64,000 nt of DNA from Alphaproteobacteria bacterium (GCA_965242505.1 OZ251449.1:2803843-2867842), one strand, 5' to 3'. Positions 2,405 to 61,694 are shown, counted from the first letter of the stretch. Notes: a model not told the origin generated them from the sequence alone. Made by a program: numbers and translations.

Positions 2405-2460
2405 GGGGAGGAGCGTTCCGCGGGCGCCGTCACGCCGGCGTCCTCCGCTCCGCCGTCCGC

Positions 2461-2523
2461 CTCCGGCGAAACCTCCGCCGTTCGCCTCCGGCGAAACCTC
2501 CGCCGTTCGCCTCCGGCGAAACC
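2461..2523. repeat. 25-bp direct tandem repeat (2.5 copies), ctccggcgaaacctccgccgttcgc, between the leuS start and the downstream small gene
   Basis: Read directly in sequence at 2461-2485, 2486-2510 and a partial copy at 2511-2523. Confidence 0.6.
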
Positions 2524-2526
2524 CGT

Positions 2527-2925
2527 TCACGCCGCGTCCTTCCGGCCGGTCACGGCGTCGCGCAGGCCGTCGATCAGGCCTTCGAGCCGGGCCATGCGCT
2601 GCTCGACGCCACCCATGCGCTGTTCGAGGCCGCCCATCCGTTGTTCGAGGCCATCCATGCGCCGCTCGAGACCGTCCATGCGCTGTTCGAGGCCGTCCAT
2701 GCGCCGCTCGAGGCCGTCGATGCGCTGGCCGAGGCCGTCGATGCGTTGCTCAAGGCCGTCGATGCGCTGGCCGAGGCGCTGTTCGAGACCGCCCATGCGC
2801 TGCTCGACGCCGTCGATGCGCTGGCCGAGGCGCTGCTCGATCTTGCCCACGTCCGCCCGCAGCCAGGCGAAGACGGCGACGATCAGGGTCGCCAGACCGA
2901 GGAGGCCGCCCAGTTCCGGGGTCAT
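2527..2925 (-). CDS. Small membrane-anchored protein (132 aa): N-terminal TM helix followed by about 12 degenerate octad repeats (Q/R)R(M/I)DGLEQ
   Basis: ORF starts [22 protein letters not shown] (hydrophobic helix) then runs ([11 protein letters not shown] / LEQRMDG) repeats. GGAG sits about 12 nt upstream of the ATG. An underlying 24-nt DNA periodicity is visible at 2590-2860. It follows the lipoprotein gene on the same strand. Confidence 0.5.
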
Positions 2926-2934
2926 GGCGGTTCC

Positions 2935-3486
2935 CTACTCCGGCGGAACGGCGTTCGCGCGCAGCTCGCGCGCGCGGGTGAGGATCGCGTTCTCCAGGTC
3001 CGTCGCCGTTCCGTCGCCCACGCCGCCGTCGACCCAGCGGTCGCCCGCCGCGAGCCGCTGCCGGAACACCGACACCTTCACGCCGTCCGCGCGCAGCTGG
3101 CGGTCGAGGATGTAGACCGTCATCTTGAAGCGTTCCGAGGGCGTCTCGGGAGGCGAGTACCAGTCGGTGATGATCACGCCGCCGAAGGGGTCGGCGGACG
3201 AGAGCGGCATGAACGAGACGGTGTCGAGCGAGGCCCGCCAGAGGAACGCGTTGACGCCGATGCCCCCGCCGTCCGACGACCGGGCGTCCGGGCCCCCGAA
3301 GAGGGGGATCCCGCCGCCGAACAGCCCGCCACCGTCGTCACCCTCGAACCGGGCCTTCCTGGGATCGTTGTCGACGTCGCCGACCTCCTCGATCGTCGGG
3401 TTCCCGCATCCGGCGGCGAGCAGCAGGACGCCGCCGAGAACGCCGGCCAGCAGGGGCCGCCCGCGCCGGGGTCCGAACGTCTTCAT
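2935..3486 (-). CDS. DUF3576-like lipoprotein (183 aa) with lipobox LAAGC
   Basis: Internal start MKTFGPRRGRPLLAGVLGGVLLLAAGCGNPT is a SPII signal with a Cys lipobox. GGGAGAcgccc-ATG is the RBS. The C-terminal GIGVNAFLWRASLDTVSFMPLSSADPFGGVIITDWY matches the DUF3576 family as I remember it. The longer N-terminal extension of the track ORF is Arg-rich and unlikely to be translated. Confidence 0.7.
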   Translation of the reverse strand: MKTFGPRRGRPLLAGVLGGVLLLAAGCGNPTIEEVGDVDNDPRKARFEGDDGGGLFGGGIPLFGGPDARSSDGGGIGVNAFLWRASLDTVSFMPLSSADPFGGVIITDWYSPPETPSERFKMTVYILDRQLRADGVKVSVFRQRLAAGDRWVDGGVGDGTATDLENAILTRARELRANAVPPE

Positions 3487-3737
3487 GGGCGTCTCCCGTC
3501 CCTGGGGTTCCGAATCCGTATCCGTCCACGGACGGCCTGCGGCGGCCGGAGCGCGCCGACGGCCAGGCCGGCGTCGGCGCGTTCTTCCCCGCGGGGCCCG
3601 ATTGTGCGACGGCCGGCCCCGGCGCGCAACCGGCTTGTCCTCGTTCAGGACATTCGCATCGTTCCCGCCCGACCCCCGCCCCCGACGCGACCCCCCCTTC
3701 CGTAGCGCGCGCGGCCGGCGGGGGGATGGGGCGCGGG

Positions 3738-4199
3738 TCAACCGGCGGCGGGGAGCAGCAGCTTGAGCAGGCCGAAGGTCAAGCCGGCGTTGGCGAGCAC
3801 GATCCCGACGGCGATGCCGACGAAGCGGACCGTCAACCGCGTTTCGAGGTTGGCCACGTCGGTCTTGAGTTCGGCCTTCGCTTCAGCGAGCTCGGCCTTC
3901 ACTTCGGCGAGCTCGGCCTTCGTCGCCATCCTGTTCTCGACGCGGGCGATGTCGGCTTTGACGGCGGCGAGTCCATTGTCCAGGTCGGTCCTGAGCGCGG
4001 TGAGGCCGGTATCGAGGTCCACCTTGGCGGCGGCGAGTCCCTTGTCGAGGTCGTCCTTGGTGGCGACGCCTTCCGCCACGGCGTCGCGGACGGCCTCGGC
4101 GTGCGCTTCGGCCTGGGCCTCGTCCACGCCGGCCGCCTTGAGGCGACGCGCGTAGGACAGCGTGTCGAAGCCGGTGGCGTGCGTGATCTTCATGGCCAT
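3738..4199 (-). CDS. DUF1640-family coiled-coil protein with C-terminal TM anchor (paralog 1, about 153 aa)
   Basis: MAMKITHATGFDTLSYARRLKAAGVDEAQAEAHAEAVRDAV... followed by K/E-rich coiled coil and the C-terminal hydrophobic RFVGIAVGIVLANAGLTFGLLKLL. The start was set at the MAMK motif shared with the paralog. Confidence 0.7.
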   Translation of the reverse strand: MAMKITHATGFDTLSYARRLKAAGVDEAQAEAHAEAVRDAVAEGVATKDDLDKGLAAAKVDLDTGLTALRTDLDNGLAAVKADIARVENRMATKAELAEVKAELAEAKAELKTDVANLETRLTVRFVGIAVGIVLANAGLTFGLLKLLLPAAG

Positions 4200-4615
4200 G
4201 GGGCCGAGGCTACACCGTCGCGGGGCCGTCCGCAAGCGCGCGTCCATGCGGACCCCCCTCCCCCCTCGTGTTTCTCCCTCCCCCCTGCCAGGGGGGAGGA
4301 GTGTGGATGGTCAGGGGGGAGGAGTGCGCGGGGCGAGGGTCGTTCGGCGGGTTCGGCTGGCGGTCCGGGCCTCGCGCGCCGCCATGGCCTCCTCCTGGCG
4401 GCGGAGCCTCTCCTCCTCGTAGCGGCGTTCGTCTCGGCCTCGCGTTTCCGCCTCATGTCTTCGTTGAAGCGGTCCATCCCGCGGAGGTCACGGCAGATGC
4501 CGATGATGATGATGACGTAGACGGCGACGGCGGCGGCCGCGATCCAGACGCCGGCGGTCGAGATCCAGTGGATCGTGTGTTGCGCGGTGAGGATGGCCTG
4601 TTCGGGCTCGGTCAT
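4190..4615 (-). CDS. Small membrane protein (the first 70 aa or so are convincing); the C-terminal tail is read-through of the REP element
   Basis: AAGGGAGAcgccc-ATG RBS. MTEPEQAILTAQHTIHWISTAGVWIAAAAVAVYVIIIIGICRDL is a TM helix. Downstream residues (PPDHPHSSPLAGG) are a typical REP translation, so the true stop and extent are uncertain. Confidence 0.4.
   Translation of the reverse strand: MTEPEQAILTAQHTIHWISTAGVWIAAAAVAVYVIIIIGICRDLRGMDRFNEDMRRKREAETNAATRRRGSAARRRPWRRARPGPPAEPAERPSPRALLPPDHPHSSPLAGGREKHEGGGGSAWTRACGRPRDGVASAPWP
4255..4340. repeat. REP-like palindromic elements (type A core CTCCCCCCTG(C/T)CAGGGGGGAG), 2 copies
   Basis: ctcccccctgccaggggggaggagtgtggatggtcaggggggaggagtgcgcgggg. 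The same family recurs across the window. Confidence 0.7.
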
Positions 4616-4654
4616 GGGCGTCTCCCTTCAGGCCAGGATGCTGCCGGATTGCCG

Positions 4655-4712
4655 CGAAGGCGGGAACCCCCCTCCCGGCCTCCCCCGCCAGGGGGGAGGG
4701 GCGCGTCGGGGC
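4655..4712. repeat. REP-like element (type A) immediately 3' of DUF1640 paralog 2
   Basis: cccctcccggcctcccccgccaggggggaggggcgcgtcggggcgcggg. Confidence 0.65.
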
Positions 4713-4717
4713 GCGGG

Positions 4718-5218
4718 TCAACCGGCGGCGGGGGGCAGCAGCTTGAGCAGGCCGAACGCCAAGCCGGCGTTGGCGAGCACGATCCCGACGGCGATGCCGA
4801 CGAAGCGGACCGTCAACCGCGTTTCGAGATTGGCCACGTCGGTCTTCGTCGCCATCTTGTCCTCGATGCGTTCGACCCTGCCTTCGAGGCGGGCGACGTC
4901 GGCCTTGAGCTCGGCCTTCACTTCGGCGAGCTCGGCCTTCGTCGCCATCCTGTCCTCGACGCGGGCGATATCGGCCCTGGTGGCGGCGAGTCCATTGTCC
5001 AGGTCGGTCCTGAGCGCGGTGAGGCCGGTATCGAGGTCCACCTTGGCGGCGGCGAGTCCCTTGTCGAGGTCGTCCTTGGTGGCGACGCCTTCCGTCACGG
5101 CGTCGCGGACGGCCTCGGCGTGCGCTTCGGCCTGGGCCTCGTCCACGCCGGCCGCCTTGAGGCGGCGCGCGTAGGTCAGCGTATCGAAGCCGGGAACGGG
5201 CGCGATCTTCATGGCCAT
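4718..5218 (-). CDS. DUF1640-family coiled-coil protein with C-terminal TM anchor (paralog 2, about 166 aa)
   Basis: MAMKIAPVPGFDTLTYARRLKAAGVDEAQAEAHAEAVRDAVTEGV... The N-terminal 70 aa and C-terminal 40 aa are almost identical to paralog 1 at both DNA and protein level, and the central coiled coil carries an extra repeat. The upstream part of the track ORF reads into the IS. Confidence 0.7.
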   Translation of the reverse strand: MAMKIAPVPGFDTLTYARRLKAAGVDEAQAEAHAEAVRDAVTEGVATKDDLDKGLAAAKVDLDTGLTALRTDLDNGLAATRADIARVEDRMATKAELAEVKAELKADVARLEGRVERIEDKMATKTDVANLETRLTVRFVGIAVGIVLANAGLAFGLLKLLPPAAG

Positions 5219-5271
5219 GGGGGCGAAGCTACACCGTCGCGGGGCTGTCCGCAAGCGCGCATCCATTGAGC

Positions 5272-6128
5272 AACCGGATAGATGGGTAACACTATAGACC
5301 GGATACATGGGTAACAGTGTTCCCGGTCTGTCCCGCTTCCGTGCGGCCCGGCCGGGCCGCACGGAAGCGGTGTAGCTTCTTCGACCTCCGATCGATGATC
5401 CCGAGGTCGACATCCGCGAAGCGGACGATCCAGTCGCCCCCGTCAGTCTCGGCCACGCCCACAGGCTCACCCCTCAGCGTCTCGCTGACGAAGACCAAGT
5501 CGCCGCCCCACTTGATGGAGCCATCGGTGCGGACCCGGCGCATCGCGTGCTCGGCATCGTACCAGGGCTCCTCCAGGCGCTCGGGATGACGCCGCGACGA
5601 CGACCGGTAGAACGCCGCAGGCGGCCTCTGCCCCAAGGCCTCATGCGGACGATGGACGTTGAAGTCCTGGCGGAAGCGGTCGAAGCGGGCCTGTTGCGCG
5701 TCCGCCGTCGCCGCCGGCGGCGTCGCGGTCTCGGCCTTCAACGTCCGATGCATCCGCTCATGCCTCCCGTTCTGCTGCGGCTGACCCCGCGCAATCCGCT
5801 CCACCGCGATCCCGGCCTTGATCCATTCCACCGACAGACGCGACAGACCCCCAGCCCCCGGACCGGCGAACGGCGCCCCGTTGTCCGAACGGATGGCCTC
5901 GGGAACCCCGTAGCGCCGGAACACCCGCCCCACCGCCGCCCCCACCGCAGCGGTCTGCGGCGGGACGATGACGCACGCCAACAGAAAGCGGCTGTAGGCG
6001 TCGGTGATCGTCAGCGGATCGCAGCGGACGCCGTCGCGGGTGCGAAACCACCCCTTGAAGTCGATGCACCACACGTCGTTGGGAGCCGCCACAGAGCGGA
6101 ACGGACGACACGTGCGTGGCCGAAACAT
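5272..6128 (-). mobile_element. 5'-truncated IS481-family IS copy (one terminal IR plus the C-terminal 278 aa of the transposase), inverted relative to the intact copy at about 14424-15748
   Basis: The ORF 5292..6128(-) product is 95% or more identical to residues about 134-411 of the transposase at 14491..15726 (CIDFKGWFRTRDGVRCDPLTITDAYSRF... DDE/rve domain). The terminal sequence gagcaaccggatagatgggtaacactatagaccggatacatgggtaacag at 5272-5320 is the reverse complement of the intact copy's right end. The N-terminal HTH part is missing. Confidence 0.85.
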
Positions 6129-6849
6129 GGGGCGGGGCCAGTTTCGGAAAATCCAGAACTGGATCGGCGCCCCGGGCTCCCCGATAGGAAAGGCCGATTT
6201 CGTCCCGCCGGCCCCGGAGACCCTGATGCCCGAACTGGATGCGTGGGAGAAGTACTATCACGCGGAATCCCCCGACGGACTCGTCCAAATGGCCGTGGTC
6301 CACGCTCAGTTCGAAATCATCCATCCCTTCCTGGACGGCAACGGGCGTATCGGACGCATTCTGATACCGCTGTTTCTCGCGGAGAAGAAACTCCTTTCGC
6401 GCCCGATGTTCTATCTATCGTCGTACCTTGAACGACACAGGGACGAATACGTCTCGGGGCTGCGCGCCCTCAGCCGACGGAACGATGGCTGGAACCTCTG
6501 GATAGGCTTCTTTCTGCGCGCGGTCGAGGAGGAAGCGCGAGCGAACGCCGACAAGGCGAAAGCGATCATCGACCTCTACGCGGACCTGAAGGAGAGGGTG
6601 CTGGCTCTCACGCACTCACAATACGCCATCCCGCTCCTCGACCAGATGTTCGAGCGCCCGTTGTTCCGGAGCGCGATGCTTCGGTTTCCCGACGGTCTCG
6701 CGCCGAGTCGGCAGGCCGTGTCCCATCTGCTTCGTCAGTTGCGCAGCAGCGGCATCCTGAAGGTCCTGCGAGAAGGTCGGGGAAGACGCGCCCAAATCCT
6801 GGTCCTGGCCGAGCTCGTCAACATCTGCGAGGGCGAGGAGATCGTTTAG
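6129..6849 (+). pseudogene. Fic/DOC family protein (AMPylase-type), 5'-truncated at the junction with the IS fragment
   Basis: Canonical Fic motif HPFLDGNGRIGR in ...AVVHAQFEIIHPFLDGNGRIGRILIPLFL. The homologous reading frame begins abruptly at about 6128 (..QNWIGAPGSPIGKADFVPP..) with no N-terminal about 100 aa and no own start. Upstream residues of the track ORF are antisense IS sequence. Confidence 0.7.
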
Positions 6850-6892
6850 GCCGCATTTCTCATACCGGCAGGGATCGGAGATTGCGCGGCGT

Positions 6893-6960
6893 TGCGGGGC
6901 CGCGGACCCCCCTCCCGACCTCCCCCCTGCCAGGGGGGAGGAGTGCGCGGGGCGGGGGTC
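6893..6960. repeat. REP-like element (type A)
   Basis: cccccctcccgacctcccccctgccaggggggaggagtgcgcggggcggggg. Confidence 0.7.
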
Positions 6961-7010
6961 GTTCGGCGGCGGGGGAGCAGCAGCTTGAGCAGGCCGAACG
7001 CCAAGCCGCC
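6961..7010 (-). pseudogene. About 45-bp remnant of a DUF1640 gene 3' end (third, fragmentary copy)
   Basis: ggcggcgggggagcagcagcttgagcaggccgaacgccaagccg nearly matches the 3' ends of the paralogs at 3738-3790 and 4718-4770 (encoding ..GLAFGLLKLLPPAAG). As with those paralogs, it sits right beside a REP. Confidence 0.55.
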
Positions 7011-7191
7011 TGCGCCGGGTGTGGCGAAAAAGCCACATTCCGTGTCGTTCTCGCCCGCGGCGCGCGGTTCCGCCGCCGAACCCGCGGATTCCCGTTGATT
7101 CGGCGGAACGGCGCGTGCTTACGTTGAAGGGCGCAAAGACGCGTCGTATGGTTTTTGGCCAAACAACCCTGTTGGTTACGGAGGATCACGA

Positions 7192-8289
7192 ATGAAAACG
7201 CACAAGAGCAGGCTTCTCGCCACCAGCGCTCTGGCGGGCGCCGGGATGGCGCTTCCGGGCGTCGCGGCGGCCGAGATGATGAAGCCGGCCCTCTCGGTGG
7301 GCGGCTACCTCTGGCACGACACCCACTTCGCCAGCCAGGACATGGACGAGAACAAGAGCTCCGTCCTGCACCATGTCGACTCCGAGGTCCACTTCAAGCT
7401 GGCCGGCGAGCTCGACAACGGCCTCAAGATCGGCGGGCGCATCGAGCTCGAGAGCCAGACCGGCGGCGACCAGATCGACGAGACCTGGCTCGACCTTTCG
7501 GGCGCGTGGGGGATGCTCAGGTTCGGGAACAAGAACTCCGGGCGCTACGTCCACAGCTGGTCGGCGACGGGCCCGAACGTGTCCCACGGCGTCACCTCGG
7601 GCGTGACGACGGAATGGCTGGTTCTCCCTGAGGGTGTCGGCGCTGGCCTCTTCTTCCGCAAGCCGCTCGGCTCGGCCCACCCCGACGTCTCGAACGACGA
7701 CCCGGCCCTCACCTACTTCACGCCGCGCTTCAACGGCTTCCAGATCTCGGTGACCCACCGCCCCGAAATCCAGAACACGGGCGGCAAGAACATCGGGACG
7801 AGCGGGTCGGACGACACGGCGAACTACACCAACGCGCTCGACGGCTCGGTCCAGTACTCCGGCGACGTGGGCGGCATGAAGGTCGCCCTCGTGCTCGGCG
7901 CGGGCTCGGCCGGCGGTCCGGACGGCGCGGAGGACTACCAGGTCGTCAACGGCGGCGCCAAGGTCACCGCCAGCGGCTTCAGCTTCGGCGGCCACATGGC
8001 CGACGTGGAAGACGACATGAACAACGCCACCGGCACGGCGTACAGCGTCGGCGCGAGCTACGGGCAGGGCCCGTGGGCGGTGAGCGCGACGTTCCACGAT
8101 GGCGAGGTCGACGGCACCGTCGCCGACCCCGACAGCAGCGAGTTGTCGGTGTGGGCCCTGGGCACGAAATACACCCTCGGTCCGGGCGTGCGCCTCCTGG
8201 CGTCGTACCAGAACGCGGAGGTGACCTCGGAGCTCGGCGGCAGCAACGAGGGTTCGGCATTCACCGCGGGCGTCGCGGTCAACTTCTGA
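7192..8289 (+). CDS. Outer-membrane porin (alphaproteobacterial general porin type), 365 aa
   Basis: GGAGG RBS 7 nt upstream. Signal peptide MKTHKSRLLATSALAGAGMALPGVAAA. Gly/Ser/Thr-rich amphipathic beta-strand composition and a C-terminal ...AGVAVNF ending in Phe. The strong hairpin terminator follows. Confidence 0.8.
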   Translation: MKTHKSRLLATSALAGAGMALPGVAAAEMMKPALSVGGYLWHDTHFASQDMDENKSSVLHHVDSEVHFKLAGELDNGLKIGGRIELESQTGGDQIDETWLDLSGAWGMLRFGNKNSGRYVHSWSATGPNVSHGVTSGVTTEWLVLPEGVGAGLFFRKPLGSAHPDVSNDDPALTYFTPRFNGFQISVTHRPEIQNTGGKNIGTSGSDDTANYTNALDGSVQYSGDVGGMKVALVLGAGSAGGPDGAEDYQVVNGGAKVTASGFSFGGHMADVEDDMNNATGTAYSVGASYGQGPWAVSATFHDGEVDGTVADPDSSELSVWALGTKYTLGPGVRLLASYQNAEVTSELGGSNEGSAFTAGVAVNF

Positions 8290-8291
8290 CC

Positions 8292-8347
8292 CGGCTTCCG
8301 GCGGAAGCCGCCAGGGGCGGGGGGCCATCCCCCGCCCCTTTTCTTTG
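8292..8347 (+). terminator. Rho-independent terminator of the porin gene
   Basis: Hairpin cggcttccg-g-cggaagccg, then ggggcgggggg-ccat-cccccgcccc followed by ttttctttg. Confidence 0.65.
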
Positions 8348-8496
8348 CCGCGCCGGCGCGGGCCGCCGTCCGGTCCACCGGCGGGCGCGACCGAATGGCA
8401 CCGTCGTATCCGCGGGGCTTGGCGCGGCGCGCGGGCCGCGGTAGTCTCCGGACCGGTGGAGATGGGCGAGACCTGCATTTCCCGGAAGAGTCCCTG

Positions 8497-8760
8497 ATGC
8501 CGACATATCTCATCGCCTTGAATGCGCCGGATTCCGCGGTGTGGAAACGAGTCGAGTCGGTTTGGCCCGACGACCATTTCCTTCTCACGGATTGCCTGGC
8601 ATTCGTGTCCGAGGATGATCCCAACCTTCTTACGCAGGACATCGCCGAAAACCTGGGGATGACCGCGGAGGGGAACGTTCTCGGCCTGGTGACGGAGGTG
8701 AAAGGCCTGGCGGGACGCAACTCCACGTCGTTTGCCGAGTGGTTGAGTAAACGCTCATGA
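8497..8760 (+). CDS. Small acidic hypothetical protein (87 aa); first gene of a low-GC two-gene cassette
   Basis: MPTYLIALNAPDSAVWKRVESVWPDDHFLL... GGAAGAG lies upstream. Local GC is about 55-58% against about 70% for the flanks. The stop overlaps the next start (ATGA). Confidence 0.5.
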   Translation: MPTYLIALNAPDSAVWKRVESVWPDDHFLLTDCLAFVSEDDPNLLTQDIAENLGMTAEGNVLGLVTEVKGLAGRNSTSFAEWLSKRS

Positions 8761-9071
8761 GCGACCGCAGCGAAAACGTGGTGGATCTGGAAAAGAATCC
8801 CAGGAATCTCCAAGGGTCAGGCAGTGGCGGCGGGAACGGAAACCTCACACGGCACAGGCTGAACGACCTGGAACGCCGCATGGAGAAGCTGGAAAGCAAG
8901 GTGGATGATCTGATCGGTCTTTGCGCCAGGATCGACGAGAAACTGAATGAAGTCGCGAGCAAGAGTTACGTCTTGCGGATCCTGTGCGTAACCGTAGTGG
9001 TAACCATAGGGGGTTCACTCGCGACCGTCATCGTCCATGCCATCATGAGAACCTTGGTCCCTGTTTCCTGA
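8757..9071 (+). CDS. Tail-anchored coiled-coil membrane protein (104 aa; N-terminal coiled coil and C-terminal TM, XhlA/holin-accessory-like architecture)
   Basis: ..LTRHRLNDLERRMEKLESKVDDLIGLCARIDEKLNEVASKSYVLRILCVTVVVTIGGSLATVIVHAIM. Same low-GC islet, translationally coupled to the upstream gene. The family assignment is architectural only. Confidence 0.45.
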   Translation: MSDRSENVVDLEKNPRNLQGSGSGGGNGNLTRHRLNDLERRMEKLESKVDDLIGLCARIDEKLNEVASKSYVLRILCVTVVVTIGGSLATVIVHAIMRTLVPVS

Positions 9072-9258
9072 ACCCGTTCATCCATGAAAGCCCGCCGGGG
9101 TGGAGGATTTTCGCGGCGCTCCCGACCGGAACGTCATGGCGGCGGTTCCCCGGCCGGCGTCGGCGTCGGCGGGCGCGATCATGGTGCCGGCGCGGGCCGA
9201 AACGGCTTCCCGTTCGCGCGGAAATCCGGTAGCGTCCCGGCCTGAAGGGAGAGCCGCC

Positions 9259-9630
9259 ATGGACGAATACCAGGCCGCCACGCTTGCGATCCGGACCTAC
9301 GCCCTCTGGGCCGCCTACGGACAGGTCGCCGCCACCCTCGTGATCGGCAGCGGCCAGATCGCCGTCGTCTTGTACGGCATCCGCGCCATGATCCGCGCCA
9401 ACAGGGAACGCGCCGTCATCCTCGACCAACAGCATCAGGCCGACGACAAGCGCCACGAGGAGGCCATGGCCGAGGGGGCCCGCCGCCACGAGGAGGCCAT
9501 GGCGGCGCTCGCCGAACTGGTCCGGGACGGCCGGCGCCAGACCGCCGCCCTCGACGAATCGATCCGGGCCAGCCAACGCCAGACCGCGGCCCTCGACGAA
9601 CTGCTCCGCCGCTCCGCGCCCGCCGAGTGA
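9259..9630 (+). CDS. Small membrane protein (123 aa): N-terminal TM helix plus a cytoplasmic coiled coil with internal duplications (HEEAMA x2, RQTAALDE x2)
   Basis: AAGGGAGAgccgcc-ATG RBS. MDEYQAATLAIRTYALWAAYGQVAATLVIGSGQIAVVLYGIRAMI... The upstream part of the track ORF has no RBS. Confidence 0.5.
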   Translation: MDEYQAATLAIRTYALWAAYGQVAATLVIGSGQIAVVLYGIRAMIRANRERAVILDQQHQADDKRHEEAMAEGARRHEEAMAALAELVRDGRRQTAALDESIRASQRQTAALDELLRRSAPAE

Positions 9631-9654
9631 CGCTCCGAAGCGAAGGCGGGGGCG

Positions 9655-9720
9655 GTCCGCCCCCCTCCCGACCTCCCCCCTGTTAGGGGGAGGAGTATTG
9701 GGTGGTCAGGGGGGAGAGGC
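9655..9720. repeat. REP-like element (type A variant, ctcccccctgttagggggaggag)
   Basis: cccccctcccgacctcccccctgttagggggaggagtattgggtggtcaggggggagagg. Confidence 0.6.
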
Positions 9721-9746
9721 GTCGGGGAGGAGAGCGCGGGGGGCGT

Positions 9747-11003
9747 TCAGGTGTTCATCGAGTCGAAGAAGTCGGAGTTGTTCTTCGTCTGCTTGAGCTT
9801 GTCGAGCAGGAACTCCATGGCGTCCGTAATTCCCATCGGCATCAGGATGCGCCGCAACACCCACATCTTCGAGAGCGCCGCCTTGTCGACGAGCAGCTCC
9901 TCCTTGCGGGTGCCGGACTTGGTGACGTCCATCGCCGGCCACGTCCGCTTGTCGGAGAGCTTGCGGTCCAGGATGATCTCGGAATTCCCCGTCCCCTTGA
10001 ACTCCTCGAAGATGACCTCGTCCATCCGGCTGCCGGTGTCGACCAGCGCGGTGGCGACGATGGTCAGCGAGCCGCCCTGCTCGATGTTGCGGGCCGCGCC
10101 GAAGAACCGCTTCGGCCGTTGCAGGGCGTTGGCGTCCACGCCGCCGGTCAACACCTTGCCCGACGAGGGAACGACCGTGTTGTAGGCGCGGGCCAGACGG
10201 GTGATCGAATCCAGCAGGATCACCACGTCCCGCTTGTGCTCGACCAGACGCTTGGCCTTGGAGATCACCATCTCCGTGACCTGCACGTGCCGGGACGCCG
10301 GCTCGTCGAAGGTCGAGCTGATCACCTCGCCGTCGACCGACCGCTGCATGTCGGTCACCTCCTCGGGCCGCTCGTCTATCAGGAGGACGATGAGATAGAC
10401 CTCCGGATGGTTGGCGGTGATCGAGTGGGCGATGTTCTGCAACATCATCGTCTTGCCCGTCCGGGGCGGCGCCACGATGAGCGCCCGCTGCCCCTTCCCC
10501 AGCGGCGCGATCAGGTCGATCACCCGCGAGCTCATGTCCTGGCCCGCGGGATCTCCGGTCTCCAGGTTGACCTTCTCCTCCGGATACAGCGGCGTGAGAT
10601 TGTCGAAGTTGACCTTCTGCCGACCCTTCTCCGGGGCCTCGAAGTTGACGTCGTTGACCTTCAGCAGCGCGAAGTAACGCTCGCCGTCCTTCGGAGCCCT
10701 GATGGGCCCCGCCACCGTGTCTCCCGTCCGCAGGGCGAAACGCCGGATCTGGCTGGGCGAGACGTAGATGTCGTCGGGGCCGGGAAGGTAGTTGGCCTCC
10801 GGCGACCGGAGGAACCCGAAACCGTCCTGCAGGATCTCGAGCACCCCGCCTCCCGAGATCTCCTCGTCCTTGTCCGCGAGCTGCTTGAGGATCGCGAACA
10901 TCATGTCCTGCGTCCGCATCGCGCTCGCGTTCTCGACCTCGAGCTCCTCCGCGAACGCGAGGAGATCGGTGGGCGACTTCTTCTTCAGTTCCTGTAGATG
11001 CAT
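9747..11003 (-). CDS. rho: Transcription termination factor Rho (418 aa)
   Basis: [41 protein letters not shown] (N-terminal domain), Walker [13 protein letters not shown], and the C-terminus ...DFFDSMNT. Start was taken at MHLQ; the first 68 aa of the track ORF are upstream read-through. Confidence 0.95.
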
Positions 11004-11239
11004 GGCCAGCCTATTCGGACTCGACGGTCGCGCGCGAGGCCTCGGGTTCGATGACAGGATACGCGTCGATCGATGCCGGGACGGGCGGATGTCTGAGAGA
11101 TTCGGGGCGGGAGCGGATTGCCCAGCCATCCCGCCGAAGATCGGCCCGACAGGGTTAACCGAAGACGACGCGGGAGTCAAAAGGAAAATTCGGCCCGCGT
11201 TTTTCATGTCGGCGCTGGCGGAGAATCGAGGAGCGCGGC

Positions 11240-11440
11240 GTTGCGGGACCCCCCTCCCGACCTCCCCCCTGCCAGGGGGGAGGAGTATCAGTGGGGCTCC
11301 CCCCTGTCATGGGGGAGGAGTATGAATGGCCAGGGGGAGGAGCGCCGACGGCTCCTCCCGTCCTCCTCGTTCTCCCTCTCCCTGGCAGGGGGAGGGTCGG
11401 GGTGGGGGTCGCGCCAGGGGGGAGGAGCATGGATGGCTCC
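11240..11440. repeat. Cluster of REP-like elements (type A x3 and type B ccctccccctgccagggggaggg) in the rho upstream / hemJ downstream spacer
   Basis: ctcccccctgccaggggggaggagtatcagtggggctcccccctgtcatgggggaggagtatgaatggccagggggagg... ccctggcagggggagggtcggggtgggggtcgcgccaggggggagg. Confidence 0.7.
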
Positions 11441-11441
11441 G

Positions 11442-11888
11442 TCACCACGGTTTGACGACGACGACGACGACGGTCGCGATCAGGAGCAGCGTGGGGACCT
11501 CGTTCGCCGCGCGGTAGAAGTTCCGCGAACGGCGGTTGGCGTCGTCCGCGAAGCGCCTCCGCCACCGGGCGAAAAGCCCGTGGACGGCCGTCATGGCGGC
11601 GATCAGCGCCGCCTTCGCCCAGGGCCACGCGTCCGACCAGTCGACGACCCCCGGAGTCACGGCCAGCGCGCCGCCGAACAGGAAAGCGCAGAGCATCGCC
11701 GGGTTCATGACGCCCCGCAGCAGCCTGCGCTCCATCGTCTTGAAGGTCTCCGACTGCGCGGACCCCGCCTCCGCGTCGCAGTGATAGACGTAGAGGCGCG
11801 GCAGGTAGAGCATGCCCGCCATCCACGCGATCACCGAAACGACGTGGAGGGCCTTGATCCACAGGTAGGCGCCGGCGAGCCAGGTCAC
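11442..11888 (-). CDS. hemJ: Protoporphyrinogen IX oxidase HemJ (148 aa)
   Basis: ..AYLWIKALHVVSVIAWMAGMLYLPRLYVYH.. is the HemJ signature. The GTG start overlaps the hemH stop (GTGA). It is the third gene of the hemE-hemH-hemJ unit. Confidence 0.8.
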   Translation of the reverse strand: MTWLAGAYLWIKALHVVSVIAWMAGMLYLPRLYVYHCDAEAGSAQSETFKTMERRLLRGVMNPAMLCAFLFGGALAVTPGVVDWSDAWPWAKAALIAAMTAVHGLFARWRRRFADDANRRSRNFYRAANEVPTLLLIATVVVVVVKPW

Positions 11889-12964
11889 GCGCCGCCCCCC
11901 TCGCCGGCCGCGGCCATGGCGCAGCGGACGAAGGCCCCGGGGCACGTCCGGCCGCCGGTCGCCGACCGGATCCGGCGGACCGGACCGGCCGCGCCGGCGC
12001 CGTCCTCCGGCGGGCCGGCGGCCAGCGCGGCCAGCCCCTCCATGAACTTCGGGTGGGTCCGGACCGCGGCCGCCCGTTCGTAGGCCGGCGCGCCGGCCGA
12101 TTCGGCCAGCCGCCGATACTGGATATCGAGCTCCACGAGAGTCTCCGAATGTTCGGAGACGAACGAGACGGGGACGACGACGATCGGCAGGCCCTCCGCC
12201 CCGGCGCGCTCGGTCTCCGCCGCCGTGTCCGGTCCGATCCATCGCAGCGGACCCACGCGGCTCTGGTAGCACACGACCCAGGACCCCGCCGCGACGTTCG
12301 CCTTCCCGGCCACCGCCGCCGCCGTCCGCTCGACCTGCCACCGGTACGGGTCGCCGCCGGCGACGACCCGCCGCGGCAGGCCGTGCGCCGAGAACAGGAC
12401 GCGCGGTTCCCGCCCGCCGCTCGCCAGGGCGCACCGCGACATCGCTTCCGCAAGGGTCTCCGCCTGGGCCGAGACGAAGCCCTCGTCGGTCGGGTAGCAG
12501 CACACGGCCGTCGTGGGCGCGTCGATCCCCGCGGCCCGCGCGGCCCGCCGCCACGCCTCCAGCGCCGACGCCGTCGTCGTCGTCGAGAACTGCGGGTAGA
12601 GGGGCAGCAGGCGCACCCGGTCGGGCGCGTAGCGGGCCACGTCGCGCGCCGCCTCCTCGCTGAAGGGACGCCAGTGGCGCATCGCGACGAAGACGCGGTA
12701 CTCCCCGCGCCCGTCCAGAACGCCCTGCAACGCCTGCGCCTGCGCCCGGGTCTCCTTGAGGATCGGCGACGCGCCGCCCAGCTCGGCGTAGATCCGGGCC
12801 GCCTCGGGCGCCCTGCGCCTCGCGATCCACCGCGCGAGCGGAACCCGCAGGGGACCCGGCATCCGCAGGATCGCGGGATCCGCGAAGAGGTTGGCCAGGA
12901 AGGGGCGCACGGCCGCAGGACCGTCCGGCCCGCCCAGATTGAACAGGACCACCGCCGTCTTCAA
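11885..12964 (-). CDS. hemH: Ferrochelatase (359 aa)
   Basis: (M)KTAVVLFNLGGPDGPAAVRPFLANLFADPAIL..., ...YQSRVGPLRWIGPDT... The probable TTG start overlaps the hemE stop (TTGA), and there is no in-frame ATG or GTG nearby. Confidence 0.85.
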   Translation of the reverse strand: MKTAVVLFNLGGPDGPAAVRPFLANLFADPAILRMPGPLRVPLARWIARRRAPEAARIYAELGGASPILKETRAQAQALQGVLDGRGEYRVFVAMRHWRPFSEEAARDVARYAPDRVRLLPLYPQFSTTTTASALEAWRRAARAAGIDAPTTAVCCYPTDEGFVSAQAETLAEAMSRCALASGGREPRVLFSAHGLPRRVVAGGDPYRWQVERTAAAVAGKANVAAGSWVVCYQSRVGPLRWIGPDTAAETERAGAEGLPIVVVPVSFVSEHSETLVELDIQYRRLAESAGAPAYERAAAVRTHPKFMEGLAALAAGPPEDGAGAAGPVRRIRSATGGRTCPGAFVRCAMAAAGEGGGA

Positions 12965-14025
12965 GACGCGCGCACCGCCGCCACCAGGTCCGCGACGTGC
13001 CCGGGCGGCGTCGTCTTGAGCACGCCATGCCCCAGGTTGAAGACGAACGGCCCCCGGCCGAGAACGGACACGATCTCCCGGGCGCGCGCGGCCATCGCCT
13101 CCCCGCCCTCCAGCAGCGCAACGGGATCGAGGTTCCCCTGCACGGCGCAGACGCCCTGAAGGACGTCCGCCGCCCAGCACAACGGAACCGAGCCGTCGAT
13201 GCCGACCGCGTCGACGCCCGTCGCCCTGGCATAGGCCTCGTATCCCGTCCCGGCGCCGCGCGGGAACCCGATGACGGGAACTCCGGGGCATCGCCGGCGC
13301 ACGCGCGAAACGATCTCCGCGACCGGCTCCACGCACCAGCGGACGAACTGCGCCGGCGGCAGGACCCCCGCCCAGGTGTCGAATATCTGGAGGACGTCGG
13401 CCCCGGCGTCGGCCTGGGCGGCGAGGTGCTCGGCGGTCGCGTCGACGAGGACGTCGACGAGCTCGCCGAACCCCCCTTCGTCAGAGAAGGCCCAGCCCTT
13501 CACGGCGGCGAAGTCGCGGCTGCTTCCCCCTTCCACCATGTAGGTCGCGACGGTCCACGGAGCGCCGGCGAACCCGATCAACGGGACCGCGTCCGGCAAC
13601 ACGAGGGACACCCGCTCCAGAACGGCGTACACGAACGACAGGCGCTCGCCGAGGCCGTCCCGGTCGAGACTCTTCAACCGTTCGCGCGAGCGGATGGCGT
13701 CCAGGACCGGGCCTCTCTCCTCCTCGAACCTCACGCCCTGCCCCAGGGCGTGGGGGACGACCAGGATGTCGGAGAAGACGATCGCGGCGTCCAGCCCGAA
13801 CCGCCGGACGGGCTGGAGCGTCGCCTCGGTCGCGAGCTCCGGCGAGCGGCACAGCGCGAGAAAGCCGCCGGCCGCCTTCCTGAGCTCCCGGTATTCGGGC
13901 AGATACCGGCCGGCCTGCCGCATCAGCCAGATGGGCGGCGGCGAGACGGCCTCGCCGCCGAGCGCCCTCAGGAGCGGCCCGCCGCGGTTCCCGGCGCGCG
14001 CGTTCGAACGAGCAGGCGTGTTCAT
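12961..14025 (-). CDS. hemE: Uroporphyrinogen decarboxylase (354 aa)
   Basis: MNTPARS...PPIWLMRQAGRYLPEYRELR... Upstream residues of the 836-aa track ORF are REP read-through and antisense IS. Confidence 0.9.
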   Translation of the reverse strand: MNTPARSNARAGNRGGPLLRALGGEAVSPPPIWLMRQAGRYLPEYRELRKAAGGFLALCRSPELATEATLQPVRRFGLDAAIVFSDILVVPHALGQGVRFEEERGPVLDAIRSRERLKSLDRDGLGERLSFVYAVLERVSLVLPDAVPLIGFAGAPWTVATYMVEGGSSRDFAAVKGWAFSDEGGFGELVDVLVDATAEHLAAQADAGADVLQIFDTWAGVLPPAQFVRWCVEPVAEIVSRVRRRCPGVPVIGFPRGAGTGYEAYARATGVDAVGIDGSVPLCWAADVLQGVCAVQGNLDPVALLEGGEAMAARAREIVSVLGRGPFVFNLGHGVLKTTPPGHVADLVAAVRAS

Positions 14026-14039
14026 CCATCGCAGGGTAA

Positions 14040-14410
14040 CGGTCGCGCGCCTGCTCCTCCAGCGGCTTCGTTCGCGCCCCGCTCCGCCGCCGCGACCCCC
14101 ACCCCGACCCTCCCCCTGCAAGGGGGAGGGAAAACGATCAGGGAAGGGAGGGGGAGGAGCCGTTGACGATGACGCCTCTCCCCCCCTGACCATTGATACT
14201 CCTCCCCCCTGACAGGGGGGTCCGCGCGGCCCCGCGACGCCGTTCGCGCTTCGCTCCACCGCCGTGACCCCCACCCCGACCCTCCCCCTGCAAGGGGGAG
14301 GGAGAACGATTGGGGAGGGAAAAGGGAAGGGGCCGTTGACGATGACGCCTCGCCCCCCCCCCTGACCATTCATACTCCTCCCCCCTGACAGGGGGGAGGT
14401 CGGGAGGGGG
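14040..14410. repeat. Cluster of 6 or more REP-like elements (types A and B alternating) between hemE and the IS
   Basis: gacccccaccccgaccctccccctgcaagggggagggaaaacg..., ctcccccctgacaggggggtccgcg..., repeated twice with about 170-bp periodicity. Confidence 0.75.
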
Positions 14411-14423
14411 GTCCGCGGGGTAC

Positions 14424-15748
14424 AGACCGGATAGAAAGGTAACAGTTCAGACCGGATACATGGGTAACAGGTTAGAGGGTTGGTCGGGAGGTGCGGGAGG
14501 TGCGGCCGATGCCTTGGAAGGAGACCTGTCCGATGGACGAGAAGCTGGTTTTCGTTGCCGATTATCTGCGTGGCGAGTGGTCGATGACGGCGCTGTGCGA
14601 GCACTACGGCATCAGTCGCAAGACCGGGTACAAGTGGCTTGGACGGTATCGCGGCGACGGCCCGGAGGGTCTGGTCGAGCGGTCGCGTGCGCCGCGTCGC
14701 CATGGTCGGTCGATGGCGCCGTCGGTGGCCGAGGCGATCGTCGCCTTGCGCCGCACGCGTCCGCACTGGGGTCCGCGCAAGCTGCGGGCGGTGTTGGTGA
14801 GTCAGCGCCCCGAGGTGGCGTGGCCGGCGGCCAGCACGATGGGCGACCTGCTGCGCGCGGAGGGTCTGGTGGCGCGCCGTCGCCGGCGCCGTCGGATGGC
14901 GGCTCCGTGTCGTCCGTTCCGCCCTGTGGCGGCCCCTAACGACGTGTGGTGTATCGACTTCAAGGGGTGGTTTCGCACCCGCGACGGCGTCCGCTGCGAT
15001 CCGCTGACGATCACCGACGCCTACAGCCGCTTTCTGCTGGCGTGCGTCATCGTCCCGCCGCAGACCGCAGCAGTGGGGGCGGCGGTGGGGCGGGTGTTCC
15101 GGCGCTACGGGGTTCCCGAGGCCATCCGTTCGGACAACGGGGCGCCGTTCGCCGGTCCGGGGGCTGGGGGTCTGTCGCGTCTGTCGGTGGAATGGATCAA
15201 GGCCGGGATCGCGGTGGAGCGGATTGCGCGGGGTCAGCCGCAGCAGAACGGGAGGCATGAGCGGATGCATCGGACGTTGAAGGCCGAGACCGCGACGCCG
15301 CCGGCGGCGACGGCGGACGCGCAACAGGCCCGCTTCGACCGCTTCCGCCAGGACTTCAACGCCCATCGTCCGCATGAGGCCTTGGGGCAGAAGCCGCCTG
15401 CGGCGTTCTACCGGTCGTCGGAGCGGCGTCATCCCGAGCGCCTGGAGGAGCCTTGGTACGATGCCGAGCACGCGATGCGCCGGGTCCGCACCGATGGCTC
15501 CATCAAGTGGGGCGGCGACTTGGTCTTCGTCAGCGAGACGCTGAGGGGCGAGCCGGTGGGCGTGGCCGAGACTGACGGGGGCGACTGGATCGTCCGCTTC
15601 GCGGATGTCGACCTCGGGATCATCGATCGGAGGTCGAAGAAGCTACACCGCTTCCGTGCGGCCCGGCCGGGCCGCACGGAAGCGGGACAGACCGGGAACA
15701 CTGTTACCCATGTATCCGGTCTATAGTGTTACCCATCTATCCGGTTGC
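14424..15748 (+). mobile_element. Intact IS481-family insertion sequence (about 1.3 kb) with terminal inverted repeats of about 45-50 bp
   Basis: IRL about 14426-14472 (cagaccggatagaaaggtaacagttcagaccggatacatgggtaacag) and IRR about 15700-15746 (its near-perfect reverse complement). A single transposase ORF lies between them. Confidence 0.85.
14491..15726 (+). CDS. IS481-family transposase (N-terminal HTH plus DDE/rve integrase core), 411 aa
   Basis: ..LCEHYGISRKTGYKWLGRYR (HTH), ..VWCIDFKGWFRTRDGVRCDPLTITDAYSRF..SDNGAPF..MHRTLK (rve). A second start at M7 is possible. Confidence 0.9.
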   Translation: MREVRPMPWKETCPMDEKLVFVADYLRGEWSMTALCEHYGISRKTGYKWLGRYRGDGPEGLVERSRAPRRHGRSMAPSVAEAIVALRRTRPHWGPRKLRAVLVSQRPEVAWPAASTMGDLLRAEGLVARRRRRRRMAAPCRPFRPVAAPNDVWCIDFKGWFRTRDGVRCDPLTITDAYSRFLLACVIVPPQTAAVGAAVGRVFRRYGVPEAIRSDNGAPFAGPGAGGLSRLSVEWIKAGIAVERIARGQPQQNGRHERMHRTLKAETATPPAATADAQQARFDRFRQDFNAHRPHEALGQKPPAAFYRSSERRHPERLEEPWYDAEHAMRRVRTDGSIKWGGDLVFVSETLRGEPVGVAETDGGDWIVRFADVDLGIIDRRSKKLHRFRAARPGRTEAGQTGNTVTHVSGL

Positions 15749-16172
15749 TCACGGCCTCGCGACGCCGTTTGCGCTCCGCTCCTCCGGCATGACCAAAACA
15801 GAATCAGATAGAATAAAAGAGATAGTGGCTGTAGATGCGCGGTGATCCATGGGGATTCTTTTCGGTTCGGGACTTGTCCAGCGGCCGGTCGGGACGCGGT
15901 TCGGGGCGGCGGGCTCCGCGGGAGTCCGCGTGGATATCTTCCGGGAGCCGCGGAACGGGAGGCGGGAGCGGGCGCGTGAAATCCGGTGACAACGTGAACG
16001 CGGTTCGCGGCCCGGCGGGTCGTTCACGTATTCGGATGCGTACGGGACGTTCCGTCCACAGCTTGACGGACCGGGGAGAGGATTCGCGCGTCCGGGGATC
16101 GATTCGCCGGCGGCCCGGCCCGGCGGAGTTGTCCCGATCTTCCGGGCCGGTTGTCCACGGCCCGCGTCTCCC

Positions 16173-19904: not shown

Positions 19905-20290
19905 GGCGCGACCCCCGCCCCGGTTCTCCCCCTGACGCGATCCACGCTCCTCCCCCTGGCCGTCCATACTCCTCCCCCCTGACAGGGGGGAGGTCGGGAG
20001 GGGGGTCCGCGGCCCCGCGACGCCGTTCGCGCTCGGCTCCACCGGCGTGACCCCCACCCCGACCCTCCCCCTGCAAGGGGGAGGGAGAAGAGAGGGGCGC
20101 CGGAGAGTCCGTCGGCGTTCCTTCCCGCTGACCGTTCATACTCCTCCCCCCTGACAGGGGGGAGGTCGGGAGGGGGGTCCGCGGCCCCGCGACGCCGTTC
20201 GTGATCGGCTCCACCGGCGTGACCCCCACCCCGACCCTCCCCCTGCAAGGGGGAGGGAGAAGAAAGGGGAGGGGGAAGGGGGACGGAGGG
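19905..20290. repeat. Cluster of about 6 REP-like elements (types A and B alternating, 2 composite units)
   Basis: ctcccccctgacaggggggaggtcgggagggggg...gacccccaccccgaccctccccctgcaagggggagggagaag... repeated. Confidence 0.75.
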
Positions 20291-54299: not shown

Positions 54300-54770
54300 C
54301 TCCGTTGGGGGGCGGGTTCGGCGCGCCGATCCGCACACTTCGCACACCTTCCGGGACCTCGTTCTCCCTCTCCTGTTCTCCCTCTCCCTTCCAATCCGCA
54401 CACCTCGCACACCGGCAGGGACCCCCCTCCCGACCTCCCCCCTGCCAGGGGGGAGGAGTTTGAAAGGGGATCCGCACACTCCGCACACCCTCCCGTCCTT
54501 TTTATTTCTCCCTCTCCCTTGCAGGGGGAGGGTCGGGGTGGGGGTCACCGGCGTTGCGGCGGGGCGCGTCCATCCGGACCCCCCTCCCGACCTCCCCCCT
54601 GTCAGGGGGGAGGAGTATGGATGGGCAGGGGGAGAAGTGTGGATGGGCAGGGGGGAGGAGTTTGAAAGGGGATCCGCACACTCCGCACACCCTCCCGTCC
54701 CTTTTATTTCTCCCTCCCCCTGGCAGGGGGAGGGTCGGGGTGGGGGTCGCGCCGATCCGCACACTCCGCA
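54300..54770. repeat. Cluster of 7 or more REP-like elements (types A and B), including a duplicated block of about 170 bp
   Basis: tctccctctcccttcc..., cccctcccgacctcccccctgccaggggggaggagtttgaaaggggatccgcacactccgcacaccctcccgtcc...ccctctcccttgcagggggagggtcggggtgggggtc; the block at 54400-54560 recurs at 54590-54760. Confidence 0.75.
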
Positions 54771-60498: not shown

Positions 60499-60519
60499 CG
60501 CGGCGCGGCGGGCCGGGGC

Positions 60520-61660: not shown

Positions 61661-61694
61661 GGTGGACCGCGGTTCTGCGACGCCGCGCGGTCGC

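Follow-up and report, generated by a model that had tools for sequence, protein, structure and literature searches.

We have analyzed a 64,000-nucleotide stretch of DNA from Alphaproteobacteria bacterium (GCA_965242505.1 OZ251449.1:2803843-2867842; hereafter the window, with positions counted from its first nucleotide), which carries two copies of an IS481-family insertion sequence (IS) in opposite orientation. One copy, located between hemE and a ppsR-like gene, is intact; the other has lost its left end and is fused to the 3′ part of a Fic gene, as listed in Table 1 together with the surrounding features. That two inverted copies of this family, one intact and one without its left end, enclose about 8 kb had been proposed from the sequence alone (the sequence-only reading), and alignment bears this out: the arms at 5267-6112 and 14906-15751, obtained with a repeat finder and pairwise alignment, share 846 nt with 14 mismatches (98.3% identity) and a longest perfect run of 289 nt, so that both are the same IS481-family element, not members of different families. 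No further copy of the element is present in the 64-kb window.

Table 1. Coordinates of the features at the IS/Fic locus and around it (ORF, open reading frame; REP, repetitive extragenic palindrome).
Feature	Position	Strand	Remarks
Intact IS481-family insertion sequence	14419..15751	+	1,333 bp; ends set by five-copy comparison
Transposase ORF, 397 aa	14533..15726	+	alternative GTG at 14491 gives 411 aa
Left terminal inverted repeat region	14426..14470	+	two subterminal ACCGGATA-N-GGTAACAG motifs
Right terminal inverted repeat, including TGCTCA tip	15701..15751	+	
Left CGG of 3-bp direct repeat (target-site duplication)	14416..14418	.	
Right CGG of 3-bp direct repeat	15752..15754	.	
REP-like unit CAGGGGGGAGGTCGGGAGGGGGGT	14389..14412	+	stops 6 nt short of the IS left end
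5′-truncated IS copy	5267..6112	-	right 846 nt with intact right end; left 487 nt gone
Truncated transposase ORF, catalytic rve part	5292..6092	-	annotated 266-aa protein (P0246)
IS/Fic junction, 3-nt microhomology ACG	6110..6112	.	window against intact IS and L081/L082 Fic DNA
Fic remnant	6112..6849	+	codons 127-371 and stop of a 371-aa SoFic-type (class II) gene
Fic active-site motif HPFLDGNGRIGR, kept	6322..6357	+	translation of 6004-6849
Native Fic 3′ flank, then REP unit (6906-6944)	6850..6971	+	right junction of the Fic segment inside the REP
Block B, REP-rich DUF1640 array holding the IS and Fic remnants	3635..7010	.	between DUF3576 and porin
DUF1640-like (CCDC90-like) paralogue 2	4718..5266	-	weak PF07798 match under gathering score; 5′ end abuts IS
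DUF1640-like paralogue 1	3738..4247	-	
Short 3′-end remnant of a third DUF1640-like gene	6972..7008	-	97% identical to 4730-4766
Porin (7192-8289) and three small ORFs	7009..9703	+	Porin_4 family

The ends of the element were defined by comparing copies in differing contexts, namely the window copy, three close copies on metagenome contigs of related strains (L083, L084 and L085, 93-98% identical) and a relative at 80% identity (L086). In all five copies the left end reads (G/T)GTACAGACCGG and the right end CCGGTTGCTCA, with divergence beyond, and because the terminal 6 nt, TGCTCA, are common to all copies despite their different contexts, we count them as part of the element. On the basis of the compared ends, the intact element occupies 14419-15751 and the partial copy ends at 5267; the elements that the sequence-only reading had placed at 14424-15748 and 5272-6128 are thus real, but their boundaries move, in the second case to 5267-6112. 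Read inward, the right tip is TGAGCAACCGG, and the left tip is GGTACAGACCGG in the window copy, L084, L085 and L086, and TGTACAG in L083; a scan of the metagenome contigs with the left-end 15-mer returned 14 genuine ends of related elements, mostly TGTACAG. According to ISfinder, the terminal inverted repeats of the IS481 family start with 5′-TGT, and the leading G in the left tip of this lineage would be a variant of that family-typical TGT. Positions 14426-14470 and 15701-15745 of the intact copy form a 45-nt imperfect inverted repeat (89% complementary), each arm of which is made up of two of the subterminal motifs given in Table 1.

The 1,333 bp of the element hold a single long transposase ORF (397-411 aa) and no programmed frameshift. 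In this ORF, Pfam models identify LZ_Tnp_IS481 (PF13011, E = 1e-11), HTH_28/32, rve and rve_3 domains, all above cut-offs; the IS481 model is by far the best among the IS models of NCBIfam, at 218.8 bits with a cut-off of 224, and a 66%-identical homologue carries the NCBI name IS481 family transposase. A check for a target-site duplication, as the sequence-only reading had suggested, finds CGG on both sides of the intact element, and perfect 3-bp direct repeats likewise enclose L083 (CCG) and L085 (GAT), making three of the four close copies, with no match in L084. Since these repeats vary between copies, they are target duplications and not element sequence. No direct repeat longer than 3 bp is present around the four close copies, which puts the length below the 4-15 bp listed for the family in ISfinder; despite this duplication length, the element belongs to the IS481 family. 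The exact 397-aa transposase of the window is recorded on a contig of 3,666,911 bp, on which cluster records place at least 8 distinct 397-aa transposase variants, pointing to a multi-copy element.

In the truncated copy, homology to the element ends at 6112, and its transposase retains only the Pfam rve and rve_3 domains. Because the DNA-binding part (HTH and leucine-zipper) and the left end are gone, this copy is unable to move by itself, and the transposase fragment, which is matched by the 266-aa P0246 recorded on the same 3,666,911-bp contig, is most likely dead. The truncation had been said to coincide with the start of a 5′-truncated Fic gene, and alignment places this junction precisely, on three nucleotides that the IS and Fic sequences share. 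Upstream of it, the in-frame codons at 6004-6111 are antisense transposase, and a Fic N-terminus encoded in frame upstream is thereby ruled out. The junction carries the signature of illegitimate, microhomology-mediated joining, and its position 487 nt into the element excludes a transposase cut.

On the other side of the junction, 6112-6846 corresponds to residues 127-371 of a 371-aa Fic protein, P0001, with 100% identity (tblastn), and a database search with 6115-6846 likewise returned P0001 as 100% identical across the whole query. The active-site motif is kept as previously noted, but 126 N-terminal residues are missing rather than about 100. The first in-frame ATG of the remnant, at 6127, gives the annotated 240-aa protein P0122, in which the Pfam Fic domain (E = 2e-17) and SoFic-like_C are found and the active site HPFLDGNGRIGR fits HxFx(D/E)GNGRxxR. 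The inhibitory motif SxxxEG falls within the 126 residues absent from the window copy, which is a fragment and not a complete class II Fic member. As its start, the Fic_N domain and the inhibitory helix are gone, the remnant is most likely dead, a pseudogene.

The Fic-derived DNA extends beyond the stop codon. Two relatives that carry an intact Fic gene (L081 and L082) match the remnant at 94-95% nucleotide identity, and the homology to L082 runs to approximately 6913, such that about 55 nt of native 3′ flank are included. The REP that follows the remnant belongs to a type found natively downstream of Fic in L081, and for this reason we place the right boundary of the Fic-derived DNA within the REP unit. 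We considered whether this right junction might be the original IS insertion point (REP plus 6 nt, CCGCGG), and rejected it, as L081 and L082 natively have this REP type and CCGCGG downstream of Fic. With 60.5% GC at 6200-6599, the Fic DNA also has a reduced GC content, as would fit an acquired gene.

No full-length Fic gene is present in the 64-kb window. The 90% identity cluster of P0001 has three members: P0001 itself, a 371-aa variant from related-strain metagenomes, and the 240-aa P0122 (window 6127-6849). Both P0001 and P0122 are recorded on a contig of 3,666,911 bp, as are the porin, the 397-aa transposase and the 266-aa transposase fragment of the window. Since an identical full-length gene is recorded for the same chromosome, intact Fic most likely resides elsewhere on the source chromosome and the window copy is a partial duplicate. 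The duplication appears recent, because there are no amino acid changes in 245 codons between the remnant and P0001 (compared to 3 changes and approximately 5% nucleotide divergence from the related strain) and both remnant ORFs, Fic and transposase, remain open. P0001 has Fic_N, Fic and SoFic-like C-terminal domains, the motif HPFxDGNGRxGR, and an inhibitory motif S58-S-R-I-E62-G63 that aligns with SSEIEN of SoFic; its score against the NCBIfam SoFic equivalog is 179 bits, far under the cut-off of 550, so that P0001 is a relative of SoFic, not an orthologue. The best Fic match in a scan of genome contigs is 81% identical. More distant Fic loci (L012, L011, L036 and L008) are syntenic with neither the window nor the related strain, and Fic is an accessory gene found in varying contexts.

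Comparison with relatives that carry an intact Fic gene, which the sequence-only reading had advised, places this gene between ADH and rho in L081 and L082, in the order gidB, gidA, trmE, two small genes, DsbH-like, ADH, Fic, REPs and rho, the Fic and rho genes being convergent. Sequence shared between the window and these contigs is confined to two stretches, one from Fic codon 127 to about 6913 and one from 9704 into rho; in L082, Fic leads through REPs directly to rho, and the segment from about 6914 to 9703 (porin and small ORFs) does not lie between them, its homologues in relatives being neighbours of DUF3576. No homologues of the genes upstream of Fic in L081/L082 (ADH, DsbH-like, trmE, gidA and gidB) are found in the window. 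In a related species (L087, a contig of 749 kb) and on additional contigs of related strains (L088-L091), orf9100-like genes are followed by two porins, an orf9100-like gene, DUF3576, leuS, lptE and holA, convergent on parB, parA, gidA and trmE; alphaproteobacteria usually show such convergence of the leuS side on parB-parA-gidA-trmE. The leuS (2-2749) and DUF3576 genes of the window share the strand of rho, at a distance of only about 6 kb, with no parAB, gidAB or trmE between leuS and rho. The window porin is 82% identical to that of L087 at the nucleotide level, including its upstream region, and its divergent linkage to DUF3576 is kept. Relative to the relatives, the leuS-DUF3576-porin-orf9100 block is therefore inverted and set against rho, and because the parB-parA-gidB-gidA-trmE string that separates leuS from rho in the relatives is missing from the window, this implies an inversion of at least about 20 kb next to the replication origin region.

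These comparisons bear directly on the explanation offered by the sequence-only reading, namely that one deletion took the left end of the IS, any intervening DNA and the 5′ end of Fic. In a variant that we add to it, a full second Fic copy landed first and was then trimmed. The geometry would suit a deletion, as IS and Fic each lack the end that faces the other across one junction with a 3-nt microhomology, and deletions adjacent to insertion sequences are common, as in the Lenski long-term evolution lines (Ngan et al. 2024, mBio, PMC11708052). However, an identical intact Fic is recorded in the same genome, at least 8.9 kb of native upstream neighbours are absent, the genes to the left of the junction run the other way, relative to rho, than they do in relatives, and the break lies inside the IS and not at its tip, so that no transposase-made adjacent deletion is at hand. 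As the donor Fic is intact and the flanking genes are inverted, a single deletion is insufficient; trimming of an earlier full duplicate may still apply, and we consider the explanation as a whole improbable.

A reciprocal inversion between the interior of the IS and the interior of Fic would account in one event for inverted DUF1640, DUF3576 and leuS genes that abut the 3′ part of Fic, itself in its ancestral orientation to rho. The other end of such an inversion would hold the left 487 bp of the IS joined to Fic codons 1-126, and P0001 would be a pre-existing second copy. This scenario, however, requires an earlier second Fic copy that is identical in protein sequence over 245 residues, and it offers no explanation for a porin segment that sits between the remnant and rho when its native linkage, as seen in L087, is to DUF3576. 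In addition, a 126-aa N-terminal Fic fragment is not among the three cluster members, which is a weak argument, as such a fragment might escape gene calling. We regard a reciprocal inversion of this kind as unlikely. Chains of two reciprocal inversions, worked through by hand, were rejected, as they fail to give the observed order and leave Fic split.

Taking these points into account, the reading that we favor, with a probability of about 0.5, is that the locus is a recombination scar and that the Fic segment is a partial duplicate that arose by non-reciprocal ectopic copying. That the locus is a scar holding a partial duplicate is likely, and the specific repair route is plausible. A segment of approximately 0.8 kb of Fic DNA is bounded by two novel joints, one at the 3-nt microhomology in the IS and the other in a REP unit. 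In the proposed sequence of events, a large inversion would have occurred next to the origin, and a break in or beside the IS would have been repaired with the Fic locus as ectopic template or partner. Homology between REP units would have fixed one end of the Fic patch and microhomology-mediated joining inside the IS would have closed the other, such that the left 487 bp of the IS were swapped for about 0.8 kb of Fic DNA. The inversion probably took intact Fic, parAB, gidAB, trmE and ADH to the far end of the inverted block, which is their predicted location.

Several points weigh against ectopic copying. The Fic remnant lies 2.9 kb from rho in its ancestral orientation, which would be a coincidence under this history, and the related strains, which differ from the window genome in this variable region and have no DUF1640 array next to DUF3576, are imperfect stand-ins for the immediate ancestor. 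The co-residence of intact Fic with the remnant rests on cluster records that share the figure of 3,666,911 bp, and the identity between the remnant and P0001 is established at the protein level. Finally, the source is probably a metagenome-assembled genome (MAG), in which a mis-join is possible. In a further rival account, the second Fic copy, or else the join at 6112, is an assembly artefact made from strain variants in a metagenome-derived long contig. In keeping with this, the source proteins occur only in NCBI/ENA MAG-like records, REP and IS repeats crowd the region, and closely related strains are found together within one sample series. The sequences joined at 6112, however, are unrelated unique sequences sharing 3 nt, and assemblers need spanning reads for such joins; furthermore, on both sides of the junction the flanks are about 5% diverged from the related-strain contigs, which argues against a chimera of those strains. 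An artefact is thus very improbable.

Two more far-reaching possibilities, which even taken together we hold to be decidedly doubtful, start from the same structure. The Fic patch could be the natural footprint of strand invasion at a 40-60-bp REP, followed by copying from a distant locus and microhomology closure; if true, dispersed REP units would be entry points for templated patch insertions, beyond reciprocal rearrangements. Alternatively, expression of the 240-aa remnant, in which the catalytic motif is intact and the auto-inhibitory helix is gone, might yield a deregulated adenylyltransferase.

The position of the element relative to REP units is highly regular. In all four close full copies (window, L083, L084 and L085), the left end lies exactly 6 nt past a CAGGGGGGAGGTCGGGAGGGGGGT REP unit, and the right flanks of these copies differ, marking independent insertions at the same REP-relative position. 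This 24-mer occurs 19 times in the 64-kb window, compared to an expectation of 0, and the unit folds as a hairpin. From the 6-nt offset shared by four of four copies and the presence of 19 units per 64 kb, we conclude that the element targets REP units, as coincidence by chance is negligible. The REP-like family, with the core CCCCCCTG-N-CAGGGGGGAGGTCGGGAGGGGGGT, is very abundant, forming arrays of up to about 1.2 kb (at 14046-14420, 19928-20284, 54419-54748 and 60518-61693) in addition to scattered units, and the synteny breaks seen here fall at or near REP units. Ends of related IS481-family elements from other organisms, on four metagenome contigs (L108, L183, L093 and L170), also lie a few nucleotides past a GC-rich hairpin, which in 2 cases resembles an intrinsic terminator with a T-run, and insertion beside hairpins may be general for this IS481 subgroup. 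In the more distant relative L086, the IS481-family element (2428-3747) lies beside Mu-type transposition genes, with a second, inverted IS end fragment at 5230-5386.

The sequence-only reading had also pointed out that the two IS copies permit inversion of the DNA between them by homologous recombination. The 846 nt at 98% identity are indeed a sufficient RecA substrate, but nothing shows that such an inversion happened. It would flip 6113-14418, and, if inverted, rho and hemJ-hemH-hemE would run head-on to replication. The present opposite orientation of the two copies may itself stem from the larger inversion. A composite transposon was also considered: each of the outer ends, at 5267 and 15751, is an intact right end, and the 3 nt outside these ends differ (CAT at 5264-5266, CGG at 15752-15754). 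It was rejected on account of these unfit ends and duplication, as well as an interior made up of the core genes rho, hemJ, hemH and hemE in conserved order next to ppsR-like and maf. Likewise, we rejected orthology of the truncated copy with a complete IS in L084, which lies 9 nt upstream of the orthologue of DUF1640-like paralogue 2 in the same orientation, with DNA beyond it that is not in the window: the identity of 97.9% is no higher than that to other copies, and the insertion point is 9 nt off. In the window, the right end of the truncated IS directly abuts the first ATG of paralogue 2, in agreement with the earlier observation that the fragment lies immediately upstream of this gene. 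The same reading had added that the fragment may supply an outward promoter; a scan of both strands of 5100-6300 detected no sigma-70-like promoter, and such a scan is weak for an alphaproteobacterium of 70% GC.

The intact IS lies in the intergenic region between hemE and the ppsR-like (DUF299) gene (14030-16172), which is followed by maf, coaE and dnaQ. We take this interval to be the usual site of alphaproteobacterial origins. Gene orientation switches here, the local cumulative GC skew reaches its minimum near 14,200, and there is an AT-richer stretch at 15790-15860. DnaA boxes gave 3 matches against 1.65 expected, which is not significant, and none between hemE and the ppsR-like gene. Scans for tRNA genes and Rfam families over 1-22000 returned nothing, and thus no integration-site RNA gene is involved.

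Block B, the 3.4 kb holding both remnants, replaces the second porin and an orf9100-like gene of the relatives, which have no such block at this place; homology to L091 and L089 ends at 3634, and homology to the L087 porin region begins at 7019. The block runs from DUF1640-like paralogue 1 through REPs, a short orf9100-like gene, further REPs and DUF1640-like paralogue 2 to the truncated IS, the Fic remnant, a REP and the third DUF1640 remnant of about 40 nt. The two DUF1640-like paralogues are 95% identical over 360 nt, and 6906-7008 is 89% identical to 4666-4766. The orf9100-like genes, which encode small predicted membrane proteins with no match in Pfam or NCBIfam, recur around porin and DUF3576, at 9100-9630 (+) and 4370-4615 (-) in the window, in five copies in L087 (among them at 4369-6350 and 9367-9750), and at 47-493 in L091. 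The variable region upstream of the porins in L087 (693-4193) carries two tyrosine integrases and a RES/Xre toxin-antitoxin pair, which suggests an integrated island. In the window, two small ORFs at 8395-9071 (121 and 104 aa), with no match to known families, fall where the GC content of the region is lowest (57.5% at 8600-8999, compared to about 70% elsewhere). Between DUF3576 and leuS, 2581-2840 consists of degenerate tandem repeats in a register of about 63 nt (79-80% identity), and at this site an ORF of 133-161 aa is called in the relatives.

For annotation, it follows that the 240-aa Fic and 266-aa transposase coding sequences are remnants to be marked as pseudogenes, with Fic function credited to the intact copy elsewhere. 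More broadly, the origin-proximal region has been reshuffled at REP and IS elements, breaking the canonical rho-trmE-gidA-gidB-parA-parB string. To a mobile-element specialist, the locus would be an ordinary and unsurprising recombination scar.

The founding member of the family, IS481 of Bordetella pertussis, is about 1.05 kb long, makes 6-bp duplications at NCTAGN and has TGT tips, and its many copies per genome drive rearrangements by homologous recombination. The element described here likewise has one ORF for a DDE transposase, in which a leucine-zipper/HTH region at the N-terminus precedes an rve core, and occurs in many copies per genome; it differs from IS481 in its length of 1.33 kb, in its 3-bp duplications beside REP hairpins, and in its left tip, GGT, which is TGT in relatives. 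For the Fic protein, the closest comparison is with SoFic, the class II adenylyltransferase of Shewanella oneidensis (PDB 3EQX and 3ZCN, among others), with which P0001 aligns over residues 29-350 (E = 1.6e-38), whereas the window copy has lost residues 1-126 and with them its start, Fic_N domain and inhibitory motif.

REP targeting is also known outside the IS481 family, for IS1397 and ISKpn1 (IS3), IS621, ISPpu9 and ISPpu10 (IS110), and ISRm22 (IS4), and IS481 is not among the five REP-targeting families given in 2006 (Tobes and Pareja 2006, PMC1525189). These elements resemble the present one in their fixed insertion position in or next to repetitive extragenic palindromes, and differ in their transposase families. 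The nearest parallel is an IS481-family element of Pseudomonas fluorescens SBW25, which is about 1.3 kb long, with one transposase gene and terminal inverted repeats of about 49 bp, has a REP at the 5′ end of every copy at the same REP position, is linked to large rearrangements at REP clusters, and carries with it an apparent 4-bp repeat (PMC11708052). The element in our window is similar, at 1,333 bp with imperfect inverted repeats of 45-50 bp and with four of four copies 6 nt past the same REP unit. In contrast, the host here is a high-GC alphaproteobacterium, the REP and IS sequences differ, the direct repeat is 3 bp long and varies (CGG, CCG, GAT), and the copy at the rearrangement site is truncated and not newly inserted. 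The present locus thus provides, after SBW25, a second and phylogenetically distant case of REP-adjacent, fixed-position insertion by an IS481-family element.

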